Positions 6,189 through 61,849 of a DNA stretch of 64,000 nucleotides are shown piece after piece. The notes under the pieces are model-generated. The model saw only the letters and a program-made list of their open reading frames with translations, did not search any database and was not told the origin of the DNA. How positions within the stretch are numbered: position 1 is the stretch's first letter; each line of letters opens with the position of its first letter. Source of the stretch: Octopus vulgaris (taxonomy: Eukaryota). A program made the translations under genes and the position numbers. Location: assembly GCA_951406725.2 (NCBI GenBank), contig OX597820.1:73842001-73906000 (forward strand), written 5' to 3'.

Positions 6189-6924
6189 CTTATTTCATCG
6201 ACCTTCCCCACCACTGCTCCACAAAAAGATGAGAGGCGAAGATGATCCCGGTGGAATTTGAACTCAGAACATAAAGACTGACGAAATACCGCTAAACATT
6301 TTGCCTGGCGTGCTCACGATTCTGCCTGCTTGCCGCTTCGTTTTAAGCTTATATATTAAGAAGTCGAAAATAAATGAAGAGCGATAGGTAACGGGAGAGA
6401 TAAAGAGTTTGATGAAAGGTGGAGTAAATTTGAAAATAGAACCGTTAAACTCCATATTTAGGATAAAGTTAAAAGGCAAATAGATTAGTTTCGACTGCAA
6501 TTCAGTGAGAAGCTCTTTGTTGACTGGCAAAGCATCAAAGTTTTAGCCCGTTAAAGAAATCTAAATTTATGAATGTCGAAACAGATTTCGAGAGGACAAA
6601 ATTTAATTTAAATCAAAAATAAATTCTGAAATGCAAGATGTAATAAAAAGTATCTACACACGTGTAGATTATTAAATTCAGAGCCAGTAATGAAACAATT
6701 TAATGAATTAATTGAGATAATACATTTGTAAGCTAAACATAGTTTAGCTTTCAAAGGTAAAGTCTGAAAAGATGTAAAATTAGGTTATATAATTATTAAT
6801 TAGATATGCTCCAAACTGAATGATATATAGTTACGTGCGGGTATATTTAATATGTTGGTTTACATTCGGATATGGGGAGATATTACACTGCACAAGATGA
6901 ATCGGGAGAAGAAATTCTCTTTAT

Positions 6925-7249
6925 GGCGTTCCTTCGTTTTAACTCGACAAAACTATAACGAGACCTCGGTTGTTTCCGTGACAACTCGACAATTTACTTC
7001 GGATATCTTCGTGACCTCCGAAAATTTGTGGATTTTACATACACACATGAAGCAGGTAAGAACAACTATGCAAGGCTTTTTGCTGGCATAATTTCGTTAT
7101 ATCTATATTCCACAACACAGAAATACATAAAAAACATAACACGCTCACTGTCACGGAGGTCACGAAAATATCCGAAGTGAATTGTCGAGTTGTCACGGAA
7201 ACAACCGAGGTCTTGTTATGGTTTTGTCGAGTTAAAACGAAGGAACACC
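6925..7249. mobile_element. MITE with ~95-bp TIRs (Merlin- or Mutator-like)
   Basis: GGCGTTCCTTCGTTTTAACTCGACAAAAC.. / ..GTTTTGTCGAGTTAAAACGAAGGAACACC; exact 8-bp TSD CTCTTTAT (6917-6924, 7250-7257). Confidence 0.85.
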
Positions 7250-7821
7250 CTCTTTATTCACAATATGGGTGTAAACACACCACTGGGCCGTCAATGATAT
7301 CACCGGACCGTAGAACATATGCATTTCTGTGTCGTTACGCTCCAACCGCTACTTATAGCGGAGCGTCTGTCATGGTCACTAAGAGGTGGTTTCTCTTATA
7401 TTAGAATAAAAAATGGTACATTTACTAATGTGCAAAAAGCTTTGTCAACATGGAATAAATCAATTAGATGCACTTTAAGTAACATTAAATGAAATATAGT
7501 TATGTACAGTTACTTCCAACATGTTCGCATGCATTCACGCTGCACAAGTTGTGCTGGGAGAAAAAAAATTCTCTTAAGGGAAGAAGATAAACGTAATCAT
7601 TAAATTAAATATTCAAAATCTGTCGAATAGGAGAACAGAATACTTACTTGAGTATAGTGATTACAGAATGGCAGTCTGAATTATTGAAGAGCTTATACGA
7701 AAAGGGACATAACTAGGGTAAGCTAATTCTGTATGAGTAAAAAGAAATAAGGAAAAATTGAAGAAGAGGGTAAGATATACACAACTCTAATTACATGCTT
7801 GTAAAAGCAAAATATGTGTAG

Positions 7822-8706: not shown

Positions 8707-8779
8707 GCCTCCATAGCTCAGAGGTTAGAGCACTGGTCTTGTAAACCAGGGGTCGTGAGTTCAATTCTCACTGGGGGCT
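8707..8779 (+). tRNA. tRNA-Thr: tRNA-Thr(UGU), intronless
   Basis: Acceptor stem GCCTCCA/TGGGGGC, D-arm GCTC..GAGC, anticodon arm CTGGT-CTTGTAA-ACCAG, T-arm GTGAG-TTCAATT-CTCAC; 73 nt; very similar to metazoan tRNA-Thr-TGT. Confidence 0.95.
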
Positions 8780-8799: not shown

Positions 8800-9297
8800 A
8801 AGGCGGCGAGCTGGCAGAAACGTTAGCACACCGGGCGAAATGCTTTGCGGTATTTCGTCTGTCTTTATGTTCTGAGTTCAAATTCCGCCGAGGTCGACTA
8901 TGCCTTTCATCCTTTTGGGGTCGATAAATTAAGTACCAGTTACGCACTGGGGTCGATGTAATCGACTTAATCCGTTTGTCTGCCCTTGTTTGGCCTCTCT
9001 GTATTTAGCCCCTTGCGGGTAGTAAAGAAATAGGTATTTCGTCTGCCGCTACGTTCTGAATTCAAATTCCGCCGGGGTCGACGATGCCTTTCATCCTTTT
9101 GGGGTCGATAAATTAAGTACCAGTTATGCACTGGGGTCGATGTAATCGACTTAATCCGTTTATCTGTCCTTGTTTGTCTTCTCTGTGTTTAGCCCCTTGT
9201 AGGTAGTAAAGAAATAGGTATTTCATCTGTCTTTACGTTCTGAGTTCAAATTCCGCCGAGGTCGACTTTGCCTTTCATCCTTTCGGGGTCGATGAAT
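8800..9297 (+). mobile_element. SINE family B multimer (184-bp units)
   Basis: AAGGCGGCGAGCTGGCAGAAACGTTAGC head; junction AAAGAAATAGGTATTTC at 9024 and 9208; core GCCTTTCATCCTTTCGGGGTCGAT resembles the Meta/MESC-type SINE domain. Confidence 0.85.
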
Positions 9298-9402
9298 TAT
9301 GTACAAGTTGCAGTATGACGGTTGTGCTTTTGGCGGCGAAGAGGATTGCAGTGACTCCAGCAAGCGCTATAGGTTATACATCAGAGTCGCCTTCTTCGAG
9401 GT

Positions 9403-23454: not shown

Positions 23455-24182
23455 GTCCCCCCCCCCGATGGGGCTCCTTAACCATGGTGAGGGAAACCAA
23501 CGTAGAAGGAAAACTTTGATATAAAACCAGGTTTGTGGTTGCTGACGGTCCCCTTTGTTGATGTACACTATCAGCATTTACTTATTCATGGGGCAGTCTG
23601 GGCTCTGTAGCTTTTGAGCAACTAGACCGGGAGAAAGCCACTTTAATCTCAAATCTGCGATCGATTTAGCATCTGATATGTGGCACGCTGTGCACCAGAA
23701 CAGGTAAATATCATCATTTATAGGCATGTAAGGCAATTGGAACGATACTATCAATATTGTCTGAGAAAATTTTTTGGGATAAATGGGAAAATAGCCATTA
23801 GTAATGTGGAGGTGCTTGAGAGAAGTGACTGTAGGATTATAGAGTCAATGATTTTGCAAAGACGTCTGATGTAGGGGTGGGGGATTTGGCAAGGATGATT
23901 GATGAGCGACTTCCCAAGCAGCTATTGTATGGTGAGCTGGAAGATGACAGGAAACCAGTGAATAAGCCTAAACTAAGGTTTAAGGATTGCTTTAAAAATG
24001 CTCTCATACAGACAGGAATTGCAGCTGTTGATTGGGAGAGGGTGGCACAAGACCGCGATGGATGGAGGAAGATAGTGCATGATGGTTGTTCAAGGTTTGA
24101 GAGGGAGAGAGTGAAGTATGAGAGAATTAGGAGATGGCTTAGAAGGAGGGAGCCTGTGGAAAGTAAGAGTGTTGCTTTTTTT

Positions 24183-24219
<37 letters not shown>

Positions 24220-24590
24220 TTTGTGGGAGGAGGTGTTTGAGTCGTGCAGGCCTGGGGAACCATAAAAAATCTCACAGGAATCGACCCATGATAAACAGTG
24301 ATGTGGCTATAAAAATTCACAACAGAACATGTGTAAAATATGGAAGGGTGTACGTCTCAGGTGGAGGTCTGAAAAGACATGTTACGAGAGTGCATATGGT
24401 GGTACCTGTTTCTCCTGCCAGCCAGTACAGTTGTGAAGCATGTAATAAAATGTGTAAAAGTTTGGCTGGGATTAAACGTCATATAAGGGCATCACATGGC
24501 ATCAATAATGAATCATTTCAGTAAGTCTTTTTGGCAATGGCTTTTCTCGTGTAACGAGGGTGCAACTATGATATGATATGATATATGACA
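23455..24590 (+). mobile_element. RTE-clade LINE remnant: 5'UTR-like segment plus ORF C-terminus with C2H2 fingers
   Basis: ORFs 23680-23874 and 23877-24524: CLRK..ISNVEVLER..IESMILQRRL..RMIDERLPKQLLYGEL..PKLRFKD..WERVAQDRDGWRK (classic RTE); ends in (ATATG)n. Confidence 0.85.
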
Positions 24591-26984: not shown

Positions 26985-27178
26985 TCTCCCCCTTTGTAAA
27001 CATAAGGACACAGGAAATATGTCAAGGTCGATAGGAAGCGGTGCTTCCTAGTTCTAAATAGCAGTAGTATTATTCCCTTTCATGGGACTGTCACATTAAG
27101 TTGACAACACACCAATACTTTATAGTGTTACTACTGTATAAATCTCTCTGAGAGATTTAGAAATGTATTATTTCTATA
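26985..27178 (+). mobile_element. Old copy of the PLE-like end sequence seen at 58074-58285
   Basis: CTCCCCCTTTGTAAACATAAGGACACAGGAAATATGTCAA..GGGACTGTCACATTAAGTTGAC..TCTCTCTGAGAGATTTAGAAAT. Confidence 0.65.
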
Positions 27179-30806: not shown

Positions 30807-30962
30807 GGAGTGGCTGTGTGGTAAGAACCTTGCTTTCCAACCACATGGTTCCGGGTTCAGTCCCACTGCGTCGAACCTTGGGTAAATGTCTCCTACTAAT
30901 AGTCTGGAAAGACCAAAGCCTTGAGAGTGGATTTGGTAGACGGAAACTGAAAGAAGCCTGTC

Positions 30963-31008
<46 letters not shown>

Positions 31009-31159
31009 TATGTGTGGTAAGTAGCTTGCTAACCAACCACATGGTTCCGGGTTCAGTCCCACTGCGTAGCATCTTGGGCAAGTGTCTTCTGCTATAGCCC
31101 CGGGCCGACCAATGCCTTGTGAGTGGATTTGGTAGACGGAAACTGAAAGAAGCCTGTCG

Positions 31160-31232
<73 letters not shown>

Positions 31233-33421: not shown

Positions 33422-33980
33422 AAACAATTACAGCGTGGAAGATGTTTGTAAGCCATTCAAGAATACTCAAAATCCGTTAGTTTCACTTCAACATTTACTT
33501 TTCATTTGTGTCAAAATATATTCTTCGTCGCTTTGAAACCGCGACCTGTTCACTGGCAAAACTTGGCACTGCATCTGAGAGAATAGCACTTAGCTCATGA
33601 TATATATGTGTTTATGTACCATGAACTAACTGTTACTTTCTGAGATGCAGCGCCAAGTTTTGTCAGTGAACAGGTCGCGGTTTCGAAGCGACGAAGAAAA
33701 TATTTTGACACAAATGGAAAGTAAATGTTGAAGTGAAACAAACGGCTTTTGTGTTTTCTTGAATGGCTCACAAATATCTTCCACGCTGCAATTGTTTTTG
33801 TTTCAGCACACGATCTCAGATCAAGTCACTTGCTATGCAAGTACATCTCCACTTGTTACTGTTATTCGTCTCTAGCTGGCTATACGACGCGCTATCTGCG
33901 TCCTTATATTTTCGAACAAGGGAGTTTAGCGTCCGCAACCAGTTCTAAGCAATATCTGCGTACCAATGATTTCTGGGTTA
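33422..33980. mobile_element. PLE-like end with ~178-bp inverted arms (33422-33599 / 33620-33797)
   Basis: Imperfect long palindrome in (TA)n; downstream TCGTCTCTAGCTGGCTATACGACGCGCTATCTGCGTCCTTATA is related to 50370-50415 and 57920-57965. Confidence 0.75.
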
Positions 33981-38531: not shown

Positions 38532-40265
38532 TGTTTTTCCTTCTTTCTTCAAATTTACTTCCGTTTCTCGGCGGGTGTTTTCCATACACCTAGGGCAGAG
38601 AAGCTCATTGTATGCATTCCCAGATTACACACGCAAATTCACAGATAGAATATGTATTTAGAAATTAATAAATAAATAAATTCATGGATGGATGTTGTTT
38701 TCACAGCAATAATGCTCTTCTCAGTACATGAGCCGTTCCAGTTAAAACGATTTTTTGCACTTCCTGTAGGGATGGTAAGCCAGGAATAATTTTCAAATAG
38801 GTTTCAGTACCAATTTTTTATCATTCCTAGAGATCCTACAACATTTTAAAAAATTCTATTAGCAGGTCTTTATATTTACTAATCTTGTCAAATTCTTTCG
38901 CCGCTATATTGTGATCGCAAGGGCTACTCATGTCAATTAATAAACACATCTTTTTTGTCTGATCTTTTATAATAATATCCGATTTATTAGCTTTTATAGT
39001 CTTGTCGGTCTGTACGGGGAAGTTCCATAGAATCGACACATTTTCTCCCTCAGTCACAGCTTCAGGATGGTGTTTACACCATTTGTCAGCGGTTTTGATT
39101 TTATAATACCGACATATTGTCCAATGTAAATACTGGCCGACTCTGTCATGTCTTGCTTTATATTCTGCAGGTGCTAAGACTCTACACCCTGAGATTAGGT
39201 GGTCTATTGTTTCGATCTCATCGTTACAGAATCGGCATTTTGGGTCAGTTCCATTTTTTTATCACATTGGCTTGGTAGTTCCGGGTTAATAAGCTTTGGT
39301 CTTGAGCAGCTAATATGAAACCTTCACTCCCTGCTTTTAGCCCTGAGCTTCGTAACCATTAGTGCGTGTGTTTCTGGTCTACATCAGCTTGTTTGCTACG
39401 GGCCACATATTTGCCATGGAGAGGTTCTGTTCTCATCTGCTAGCTAAATTTTCATGTGCTTTTGTCTTTGCAATTAATTTTACTTTCGTTGCAGCTGCAG
39501 TTGGCGCATTTCCTTCAGCCTGATCAATCTGGTGGGTATCTAAGAGATCAGCAGCGAATTTTTTGCTCTCTTTGAGAATAGAGTAAAGTTTTTTCGGTCT
39601 TTCAGGTTTTTCAACAAGTTTTAGCATCCAATCATTGGTTGCTTCAAGGTATTTGGCCAGTCCGATTGTGGTGGTTTTGTATGTAAGTTCAAGCTGGATC
39701 AAACCTGGACCTCCCTGAGCTCTGGGAAGGTAAAGGCGATCCACGTCTGCCTTTGGATGGTGCATCTTATTACAAGTCAGTAGCTTGCGGATCTTTCTGT
39801 CAATTTTCATTATTTCACTGGTATTCCAGTTAAGCACATTGAAGCTATAAAGAACAACTGGTACTGCTAAGGAATTTATGGCTAACACCTTATTGTGTGC
39901 ATTCAGCTCAGACTTCAGGACTGCTCAAACTCTTCTATAACATTCCTTCTTAAACTTCTCTTTCATGCTTGCATGCTGGATACCAGAGCCTTCATTTATT
40001 CCTAGGTATTTATAGGTTTGTATCTGCTCAAGTTCCTTTATTACTGTTTCGACATCTAATTCGATCGTACTAGACTTTACCAAGTTCCCTTTCTTAAAAG
40101 TGACTTTGGCACACTTTTCAAGGCCAAACTCTATCCCGATATCATCACTGAATCCTTTCACAGCATGTAATAATCCGTCAAGCTCTTCATCATTTTTGCC
40201 ATATAGCTTTAAATTATCCATATAAAATAGATGGCTTATTTTCCTGTTGTCAATTTTGTAGCTAT
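38532..40265 (-). mobile_element. R4/Dong-like non-LTR retrotransposon, 5'-truncated and pseudogenised (RT + CCHC + RLE + 3'UTR)
   Basis: HLFYMDNLKLY..DDIGIEFGLEKCA..YKYLG; AINSLAVPVVLYSF..HHPKADVDRLYLPRAQGG; ILWNFPVQTD..DIII..LLIDMSSP..EFDKISKYKDL; 3' end runs into (AAT)n. Confidence 0.9.
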
Positions 40266-40269
40266 ATCA

Positions 40270-49434: not shown

Positions 49435-49731
49435 GTCCCAAGGTTTGCACAACATTCATGGCACAATTTCACCGTAACATGGTTTATTCTTGGGGCAATA
49501 TTTTTGATTTTATAACATAAACGGAAATACTACTTCGTTATTTCCGTTTCGGTATTTGATTTTCCTATCATTTATATTCATTTCACTTTTCCGGTCATGA
49601 AGTAGACCGTTCAGTAAACAAGCATTTTAATTAGAATTATATACATATTGTGTTAAGTATTTTCGAGATTATATGATAATCTGAAATGTTAAGAAAATCG
49701 ACGTATCTAGAAATGTACTAAATCAACTTTG

Positions 49732-49907
49732 ATTTGCTAATAGGTGCTACAAATTTGTACATGAAGTAGGGAACATGTAAGATATCTCCTATTAGAAATA
49801 ATTCAGAGATTTAAATAACGTTAATTGATTCTCTGAAGAATTTCTAATATTAAATATTTAACATGTTTTCTACTACATGTATAGATTTTTAAGTCCTTTG
49901 AGCAAAT
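49732..49907. repeat. Degenerate AT-rich palindrome (old foldback element?)
   Basis: ATTTGCT/AGCAAAT, TACATGAAGTAG..AACATGT/ACATGTT..CTACTACATGTA, TATTAGAAAT..TTCAGAGA/TCTCTGAA..ATTTCTAATA around TAACGTTA. Confidence 0.55.
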
Positions 49908-50296
49908 GAAACTCGTATAATGGAGAATAAATAATATTAAAAAATTTCTGATCTATTTTGATATTATTACTCCGCAGAAAATATTTTTCAGCATTTACAA
50001 CTCTTATGCATAACTCATACAAATATAACATTCACAGGTGCATTTGGAATACTGAAATAAAAAGATGTGCTTTAAGAGGATACAGCTTGGATTTTAAACC
50101 TAAATCAACATTAAAACAAAAATGGTTCCATAGAATCTGCGAAATCACTCAATATATAAGAGGTAACTATTAGAAAAATTGCTAGAATAATTGATAGGAG
50201 CAGACGATAATTAAAAGATTCTTCAGTCTAACCCAAAGATTAGAAAATCACTATTTTTCAATATCATAACGAGATATATTCAGCAATAGTACTTTG

Positions 50297-50635
50297 TAGT
50301 AAAGATTGTTTGCCAACATAACTTGGCAGTTCTGGTTTTGGACGAATGTTGCTGTAATTTAGCCCCAGGAGACATCGTCTCCAGTTGGCTATACGACACG
50401 ATCTGTGTCCTTATACGACACGATCTGTGTCCTTATACGACACGATCTGTGTCCTTATACGACACGATCTGTGTCCTTATACGACACGATCTGTGTCCTT
50501 ATACGACACGATCTGTGTCCTTATACGACACGATCTGTGTCCTTATACGACACGATCTGTGTTATGGGGCTAAATTACAGCAACATTCGTCCAAAACTTA
50601 GACTGCCATATTATGTTGGCAAGCAATCTTTACTA
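50297..50635. repeat. 71-bp inverted arms enclosing a 22-bp tandem array (7 perfect copies + 19-nt partial, 50390-50562)
   Basis: Unit TATACGACACGATCTGTGTCCT; arms 50297-50367 / 50565-50635. Confidence 0.9.
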
Positions 50636-50957
50636 TATATAACCCTAAGATGTTTGGTAATTTTAAAACACTCATCACGCACGCGTGGTATTATTGTGAA
50701 AAGAGCAGAAGTATTATTTTACCTAAAATATAAAACTCAATATTACAACAGAGCCTTCTCCCAATTATGTATGTATATGTACATGCATTTATGTATGTAT
50801 GTATGTATGTATGTATGTATGTATGTATGTATGTATGTATGTATGTATGTATGTATGTATGTATGTATGTATGTATGTATGTATGTATGCATATGACTAT
50901 ATGTATGTATATGACTACATGTATTCATATATAAATGCGTGCGCATTTATATTTTTA

Positions 50958-56669: not shown

Positions 56670-56748
56670 AATATTAGGGAATAAATCCAAATTTACAGGG
56701 AAAAATCAGATTTAGGATTGAATCCAATTTTATAGTAAAATATTATAT

Positions 56749-57226
<478 letters not shown>

Positions 57227-57840: not shown

Positions 57841-58285
57841 ATATAGTGGTCGTATACCGTCAACTCAATGTGACAGTCCCGTAAGGGAATTACACCACCG
57901 CCATTTAGCCCTAGGAAACATCGACGTCTCCTGTCGGCTTTGACACATTTTCTGTGTCCTTATATTTGCAAAGGGGAGGCAATCACCCCCAGCGAGCGAG
58001 ACAAGCTACCCTGAACTGACGACGAGCAATAGACTCAGAAACATATGTTTTCAGGTGCTTAGTCCCAGCTGGCGGGGGTGATTGCCTCCCCTTTGCAAAT
58101 ATAAGGACACAGAAAATGTGTCAAAGCCGACAGGAGACGTCGATGTTTCCTAGGGCTAAATGGCGGTGATGTAATTCCCTTACGGGACTGTCACATTGAG
58201 TTGACGTTATACGACCACTATATCGCTCCACCACCGCTTATGTCTCTCTGAGAAATTTAGAAATTCAATATTTCTAATATATATA
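57841..58285. mobile_element. PLE-like end with 150-bp inverted arms (57841-57990 / 58074-58223)
   Basis: 2 mismatches between arms; 83-nt spacer; flanked by TA/CA microsatellite. Confidence 0.88.
58010..58055 (+). ncRNA. Minimal type I hammerhead in the palindrome loop
   Basis: CCTGAA-CTGACGA-cGAG-caataga-CTCa-GAAAC-ATAT-GTT-TTCAGG. Confidence 0.8.
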
Positions 58286-60513: not shown

Positions 60514-61849
60514 TACCACAAATGCTAGTTCAAGCACGACTAAATGCACACATACCTCCACATACATACTGATGATGAGACCTAATTACAGTATTTTTTG
60601 GATATGACCAAAGGCAAACATTTGTAATTAATGGTGTCACCATCAGCTGAAGTAGTAAGTTATTGATATATGACTAATATTCTAGTGACACCACAATGAG
60701 TGTGGAAGGCGCTCTGAAATGACTTTACTCCTTTTACCTAAAGCAAGAATTTTTCTCCGTGGCAAACTACACTGAATACACCTTTTTACAGGTAAAACAT
60801 GTTTACGACATCTTTAAAGTGATCTAAGCTTTGTATATTTTTTAATATTTCAAAATATTTTATCCATCATCCTTTTACATACGAAAAGATTGTAAAATGC
60901 CGGTCCTGGATATGCAAAACAACAGCAGCAACAACAACAACAACAGCATCAACAGCAGCAGCAGTGACATGCCCCTGTTTTTTTGCAAAATCAAAGATAA
61001 TCCAATATCTTATATAGAATCGTAAAAAGAAAACTATTACATTTCTTGATTTACAGTACACAGTCTCTTTTATGCAAGAAAATTTTGCTAATTTCAAGAA
61101 TAATTTTTTATTTATTTTACATTACTGCACTGAGGACCACCCATAATCAGTAGATAATTTTTACGGATTTCTTATAAAAAGCTAAACCTGAAGTCAGATT
61201 AGAATTGCTCTGATTGGTAGCTGGTGCTGACGAGAGCACAAAAAACTCGAAATGCATCTATCATATCGTAAGGAGGCGCTCTGACTGAATTTGTGTGTTT
61301 TGACCTTTTGCCTAAAACGAGAATATTTTAACATAGCAAATCGCAGGGAAAACATTGCTTTACAAGTCAAATGTGTTCCAGACACATTTGAACTAATATC
61401 CTGTCGTTGTTTAACTCCAGGTCTATCCAAATTAATCCAACCTATTATCAAAAGATTGAACAAAGACCAGCGTTTGCAATAACGATGTTACTATTAATTA
61501 AACTAAAAAACTACAAGTACGATATCACTCTCGTATATTGCACTCTTATATTACTCCTACTTTATTTCATCAATACCATTGGCTTCTAATTAAAGTTTTG
61601 TATATGTAGTAACTGTTTAACCCCAGGCTTTCTCCGATTCACCAGACCTATGATCAAAATGCATTCCAGCCAGGTGCAGGCACAGCTGCTTGGTTAAGAA
61701 GCCCGTTTTGCAGCCAAGCAGTTTCAGTTCCAGTTCCACTGCGCAGTACCTTGGGAAAGTGTCTTCTACAATAGCTCCGGGCCGACCAATATTTTATGAG
61801 CGAACTTTTTGGGTGGAAACTGTGTGGAAGTTCATCATACGTGTATGTA

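Follow-up and report, generated by a model that had tools for sequence, protein, structure and literature searches.

The locus described here is a 399-bp insertion (50241-50639) in a 64-kb window of Octopus vulgaris DNA, the whole stretch that was analyzed, which is repeat-rich eukaryotic DNA of about 35% GC. The insertion is flanked by a 12-bp target-site duplication (TSD) and consists of a truncated dispersed-repeat end with a one-sided tail of ~52 nt, placed head-to-head with a shorter inverted copy (Table 1). The first-pass annotation had recognized 71-bp imperfect inverted arms enclosing a 22-bp tandem array, and these arms (50297-50367 and 50565-50635) are indeed identical at 64 of 71 positions; taken out to the insertion boundary, they agree at 66 of 75, and the complete insertion exceeds the interval first annotated. 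The fold-back has a folding energy z of -22. The two halves of the TSD are located exactly at the ends predicted from the element alignment, and it is this direct repeat that defines the limits of the insertion. An 11/12 match was reached in 34 of 20000 random position pairs, and no other such 12-mer pair occurs in the searched flanks.

Table 1. Positions of the insertion's components and of its relatives in the window
Feature	Positions	Strand	Evidence
Left target-site duplication, 12 bp	50229-50240	+	11/12 identical to 50640-50651
One-sided tail, 3' extension on the long copy only	50241-50292	-	Aligns with the relatives' tails
Left arm, 3' end of the long (inferred sense) copy	50293-50367	-	66/75 to right arm; homologous to relatives
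22-nt spacer, continuous element sequence, with GGAGAC/GTCTCC hairpin	50368-50389	-	Aligned in relatives
22-bp minisatellite, 7 perfect units + 19 nt	50390-50562	+	TRF, direct alignment
Inversion junction	50563-50564	.	Direct view of sequence
Right arm, shorter inverted 5'-truncated copy, tail-less	50565-50639	+	66/75 to left arm
Right target-site duplication	50640-50651	+	11/12 identical to left one
Relative sharing this layout, made up of an inverted copy (57841-57991) and a long copy that has a hammerhead motif (58010-58055) and a tail	57841-58276	+	110/182 to the insertion's element; arms 149/157
Closest relative, single unit, both TATA motifs	33853-33976	-	86% over 43 nt
Third relative, with tail and single unit	26989-27176	+	105/176 to the insertion's element

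When the relatives are aligned, the left arm, the spacer and the first array unit form one unbroken copy of the dispersed repeat end. The spacer hairpin (-4.8 kcal/mol) shows paired changes among the relatives. On the minus strand, the long copy extends 52 nt beyond the arm into a tail common to two relatives, matching ~58222-58276 at 33 of 61 positions and ~27123-27176 at 37 of 62; 0.5% and 0.3% of 2000 random 60-mers, respectively, score as well. The tail is homologous in three copies and absent from both inverted arms. At the other end, the right arm stops and unrelated sequence follows, with no homology between this flank and the relatives' tails (47-86% of random 60-mers score as well). 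At the inversion junction lie 2 extra bases; the same sequence can be read as a 3-nt deletion of the last unit plus a 1-nt overlap into the arm.

For the array itself, TRF reports a period of 22, 7.9 copies, and 100% matches. The seven copies plus a partial one that were first described are thus seen as seven exact 22-mers and an incomplete eighth unit matching over 19 of 22 nt, a unit pattern found in 0 of 100 shuffles even with 3 mismatches allowed. It is the sole perfect non-microsatellite minisatellite within the window, where one further array with a period of 10-100 and at least 3 copies passed the filter, at 85% matches. The unit is the element's own TATA-hairpin-TATA segment, located at the element's 5'-truncation point and defined by a 4-nt TATA microhomology in the arrangement TATA-18 nt-TATA. 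The GACAC/GTGTC mini-hairpin that had been proposed within the unit is predicted to fold, at -3.6 kcal/mol as DNA. The exact 22-mer has 0 matches in GTDB prokaryotic genomes, and so there is no sign of a prokaryotic or CRISPR origin. A protein-set search with the array-spanning ORF, limited to lengths of 56-181 aa, scored 0 of 38 candidates; the array is treated as non-coding, and we propose no biological function for it. It is very unlikely that the perfection or copy number of the array is an assembly or polishing artefact imposed on a shorter or more diverged array. The region does form a strong hairpin, but the diverged arms and the TSD identify the fold-back as biological, and other repeats in the window retain their mismatches.

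The window holds three relatives of the insertion's element. Single-copy versions of the motif had been noticed near 33880 and 57935, and both were recovered, at 33866-33908 (86% over 43 nt) and 57903-57964 (77% over 62 nt), together with a mirrored copy at 58100-58161 and a further one at 26989-27105. The 175 nt at 50241-50415 match the copy near 58100-58277 at 110 of 182 positions and the copy at 27001-27176 at 105 of 176, in each case well beyond the scores of 1500 random segments. The one-sided tail asymmetry recurs in the relative at 57841-58276, whose arms are identical at 149 of 157 positions and whose inverted copy ends at the same motif as that of the insertion. The upstream part of the closest relative aligns with 58034-58103, the 3' half of the hammerhead region, at 47 of 77 positions (0/3000 null). 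All three relatives carry one unit, including the closest, which possesses both TATAs in the arrangement TATA-20 nt-TATA. A short AGCG reiteration at 57988-58000, on the inversion junction of 57841-58276, is either a small junction slip or element sequence. The closest relative is adjoined tail-to-tail by a fold-back at 33422-33797 (159/178) with a central 20-nt TA-rich filler, inside which approximately 33659-33712 displays an atypical hammerhead-like topology by eye.

Short fold-backs are common in the window, with at least five others found, and inverted arms alone are therefore ordinary here. A TIR element at 6917-7257, with 96-nt arms (95%) and an exact 8-bp direct repeat adjoining, is MITE-like. 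The near-perfect palindrome at 56740-57123 (186/187, 2-nt spacer) lies in (TA)n, contains a hammerhead-like core per arm, and has the appearance of a recent PLE fold-back belonging to a different family. An older AT-rich palindrome (76%) is found 320 bp left of the insertion, at 49728-49911. Elsewhere, the window contains a 229-aa ORF with C2H2 fingers (23835-24521, plus strand), the start of which presumably resembles an RTE-type LINE C-terminus; a broken LINE remnant with RVT_1 and zf-RVT matches (38839-40266, minus strand); an intact-looking tRNA (8707-8779, plus strand, 71.5 bits); and tandem SINE-like repeats of 184 and 196 bp in 2-2.7 copies (1590-2079, 8849-9309, and 30815-31201).

Judging from its sequence, the insertion is likely PLE-derived. 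The assignment follows from its anatomy, namely the inverted truncated copy, the one-sided tail, the TSD, and a hammerhead motif in a relative. The PLE features described in the accessible text of PMC8557442 and PMC3846280 include 5'-truncated copies in inverted orientation and a tail on one end, the latter paper also reporting TSDs of 8-10 bp, and the tail spans the interval that separates two RT start sites (PMC11167929, in part). PLEs are reported in Octopus vulgaris (PMC13282606, in part) and hammerheads in giant squid (PMC6962438, in part). The head-to-head inverted 5'-truncated copy, present in the insertion and in the layout of 57841-58276, is the same as in PLE insertions with inverted pLTRs (Penelope/Poseidon, Hydra, Naiad). 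These likewise feature a tail on one end only, a short TSD, an AT-rich target, and a type-I hammerhead about 170-220 nt from the end, for which a motif recognized by descriptor is found here in a relative. The present insertion differs in that an ORF is absent, the tail measures 52 nt versus the 30-40 bp reported, and the TSD is 12 bp versus 8-10 bp in A. vaga. The original derivation of the motif from a PLE end is accordingly supported by anatomy, although the relatives are only about 60% identical and no PLE ORF was found.

A custom descriptor, used in place of Rfam and specifying a type-I hammerhead with a first stem of at least 5 bp, identifies two motifs in the whole window, at 58010-58055 and 61222-61265. 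The former lies inside the relative (shuffles with the motif, 0/100); it is arranged like the PLE motifs of PMC8557442 (File S2) and agrees with the overall description given in PMC4209133. The latter is on the plus strand, and its flanks have no homologues elsewhere in the window. Rfam makes a hammerhead call neither for the 58010-58055 region nor for the motif near 56969, and returns no ribozyme among the best 150 of 334 matches for the whole window; the minimum-energy fold of 58010-58055 is not the hammerhead fold. The insertion copy is truncated ahead of the hammerhead position, and the closest relative retains half of the hammerhead region.

Pfam detects no PLE RT or GIY-YIG domain in 107 ORFs (the 106 that passed a complexity filter out of 243 of at least 75 aa, plus the array ORF), and six-frame translation of the flanks and relatives yields no convincing ORF. 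No PLE ORF is expected, since the insertion copy is a 175-nt truncated piece. In an RNAalifold analysis of three copies, 5 of 31 pairs show double changes, and the end-region hairpins of the insertion copy have a z of -3.0; with only three sequences, this is suggestive of hairpins kept with some paired changes. By eye, octopus Naiad consensus ends bear no resemblance to the insertion's repeat family. Two 10-nt unit probes are absent from the Naiad/Chlamys/Hydra supplement, and a third, of 9 nt, has one match there, inside unrelated-looking coding sequence.

The arms might instead be the TIRs of a non-autonomous DNA transposon (MITE or foldback) with an internal tandem repeat and no relation to PLEs, a highly doubtful reading. 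It would account for the general look of inverted arms around a tandem array and for the lack of an attached RT ORF. However, the TSD is 52 nt from the left arm rather than adjoining it, the arms measure 75 nt in one copy and about 150 nt in another, with a further copy having none, the arm, spacer, and unit are continuous element sequence, and a relative carries the hammerhead motif. A MITE was rejected on the position of the TSD, which does not abut the left inverted repeat, and on the variable arm length. Helitrons are not known to make a TSD, and a helitron-type origin was rejected because one is present. A retrozyme origin was rejected since the descriptor search finds no hammerhead in the array units. 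Non-LTR retrozymes are also PLE pLTR-derived tandem repeats, but each of their units has a hammerhead (10.64898/2026.07.22.740005, in part), whereas the 22-nt unit has none.

The array had been called more homogeneous than the arms, and this is borne out by the counts, with differences at 0 of 173 array sites versus 9 of 150 arm sites, that is, 9 in the 75-bp arm pair (Fisher p 0.0009). The contrast is reduced to p 0.046 if the arm differences represent four clustered events, and to p 0.18, which is not significant, if the last-unit deletion is counted too. The TSD halves, which come from one sequence at insertion, show one mismatch. Arm identities in other fold-backs of the window are 149/157, 186/187, and 159/178; by comparison, 50241-50639 is a rather old fold-back, provided that its two arms do not derive from different RNAs. 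The hairpin loop is 5 nt in all eight units versus 7 nt in all three relatives. Two of the four copies lack the proximal TATA, and hence the template is not conserved. There are 20 four-base microhomology pairs in the single-copy element, three of them within the fold-back loop, and the array uses the last one. This choice of pair, and the position of the array at the exact junction, favor seeding at or near integration. The uniformity of the array dates the last turnover and not the first duplication, and later homogenization may have masked an initial reiteration.

Our preferred interpretation, which we consider probable, is that this is a PLE-type fold-back insertion in which the unit grew to eight copies through ordinary slippage or unequal exchange at the DNA level. 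Growth of this kind is favored by the array-versus-arm contrast, the 5-nt loop shared by all units, the unconserved template, and the single unit of the closest relative. RT slippage and minisatellite expansion had both been offered in the first-pass annotation; expansion fits better, and RT reiteration finds no support beyond the position of the array. Given the TATA...TATA geometry, any polymerase could slip, whether RT, repair, or replicative. In the sequence of events that we envisage, each target strand would prime one cDNA, and the two would begin at different PLE RT start sites, one at the tail end and one internal. Their synthesis would stop after about 175 and 75 nt, and the ends would be joined head-to-head. 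The long cDNA would end at the distal TATA, which could misalign once onto the proximal TATA with the help of the hairpin looping out; this would create the first duplication, at the time of integration or afterwards within the fold-back loop. Further copies, and the uniformity, would arise from later minisatellite turnover.

A class of minisatellites is known to derive from transposable elements and to show incomplete terminal units or short repeats at its flanks (PMC3389668, accessible text). The array shares with these, for example the Alu-derived ones, an element-derived unit of 10-100 bp, a bounding short direct repeat, and an incomplete last unit. The bounding repeat is 5-10 nt in the model of PMC3389668 versus 4 nt here, and the present array differs in lying at a PLE-type inversion junction.

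An unlikely alternative is that the PLE RT wrote most of the array in the style of telomerase during insertion: having come to the RNA end or to a stall point at the distal TATA, it would have re-annealed the cDNA TATA to the proximal TATA and re-copied the 22 nt ~eight times. Among eukaryotic enzymes, those closest to TERT are the PLE RTs. The array would then be the genomic fossil of a latent capacity of the PLE RT for telomerase-style repeat addition, a proposition that we regard as similarly improbable. Both an A-B-A' template and a boundary element are required for repeat addition (PMC12632851, in part), and the unit does have the A-B-A' layout of telomerase and DRT10 templates. Element sequence does not continue past the array, which sits right at the end of the cDNA, and a hairpin occurs ~10 nt 5' of the template in two of three relatives. 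Yet the closest relative has no such predicted hairpin, and the z-scores are weak, leaving a boundary stem-loop doubtful. Unlike telomerase and DRT10, the template here is not conserved across copies, one locus is amplified in the window, and the array appears younger than the insertion. RT reiteration predicts units as old as the arms, whereas the array is far less diverged; it relies on a proximal TATA that half of the copies lack, and the closest relative was read through once. It also predicts recurrence, but none of the three relatives in the window is amplified, and no other fold-back there has a junction minisatellite.

Published work bears on this alternative from both sides. An R2 5' junction with a 20-nt sequence present three times (PMC3774820, Fig. 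5 legend) demonstrates that RT-linked junction repeats exist, similarly as ~20-nt tandem copies at a retrotransposon 5' junction, but this precedent also makes telomerase kinship unnecessary. The R2 example comprises three target-derived copies, compared with eight element-derived copies here. Microhomology and extra bases are described at R1 and R2 junctions (PMC2718515, in part). The accessible text of PMC11167929 reports no reiteration by purified PLE protein, and no reports of reiteration by PLE RT were found in a literature search whose coverage largely excludes subscription papers.

Host end-joining of the polymerase theta type could also have joined the cDNA ends, with the repeats arising from repeated abortive, locally templated synthesis, although we consider this quite unlikely as an origin for the array. 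Theta makes templated insertions of 3-30 bp, including direct repeats, in one or more rounds at microhomologies (PMC7165422, in part), and the junction overlap of just 0-1 nt fits such joining. The same source, however, gives tracts that are rarely >10 bp per round, and eight identical 22-nt rounds would be extreme; the age contrast between array and arms counts against this explanation too. End-joining is a good candidate for the first duplication only.

The likeliest reading is thus a minisatellite born from a retroelement end, in which the boundaries, the TSD, and the ancestral single-unit state are all visible. As such, it is a well-resolved and useful, if unsurprising, example. Should arrays of this kind turn up at the junctions of separate PLE insertions, that would give the first sign from within a genome that RTs of the family nearest to telomerase add repeats, and the existing in vitro PLE assay could then be used to test how telomerase processivity arose.
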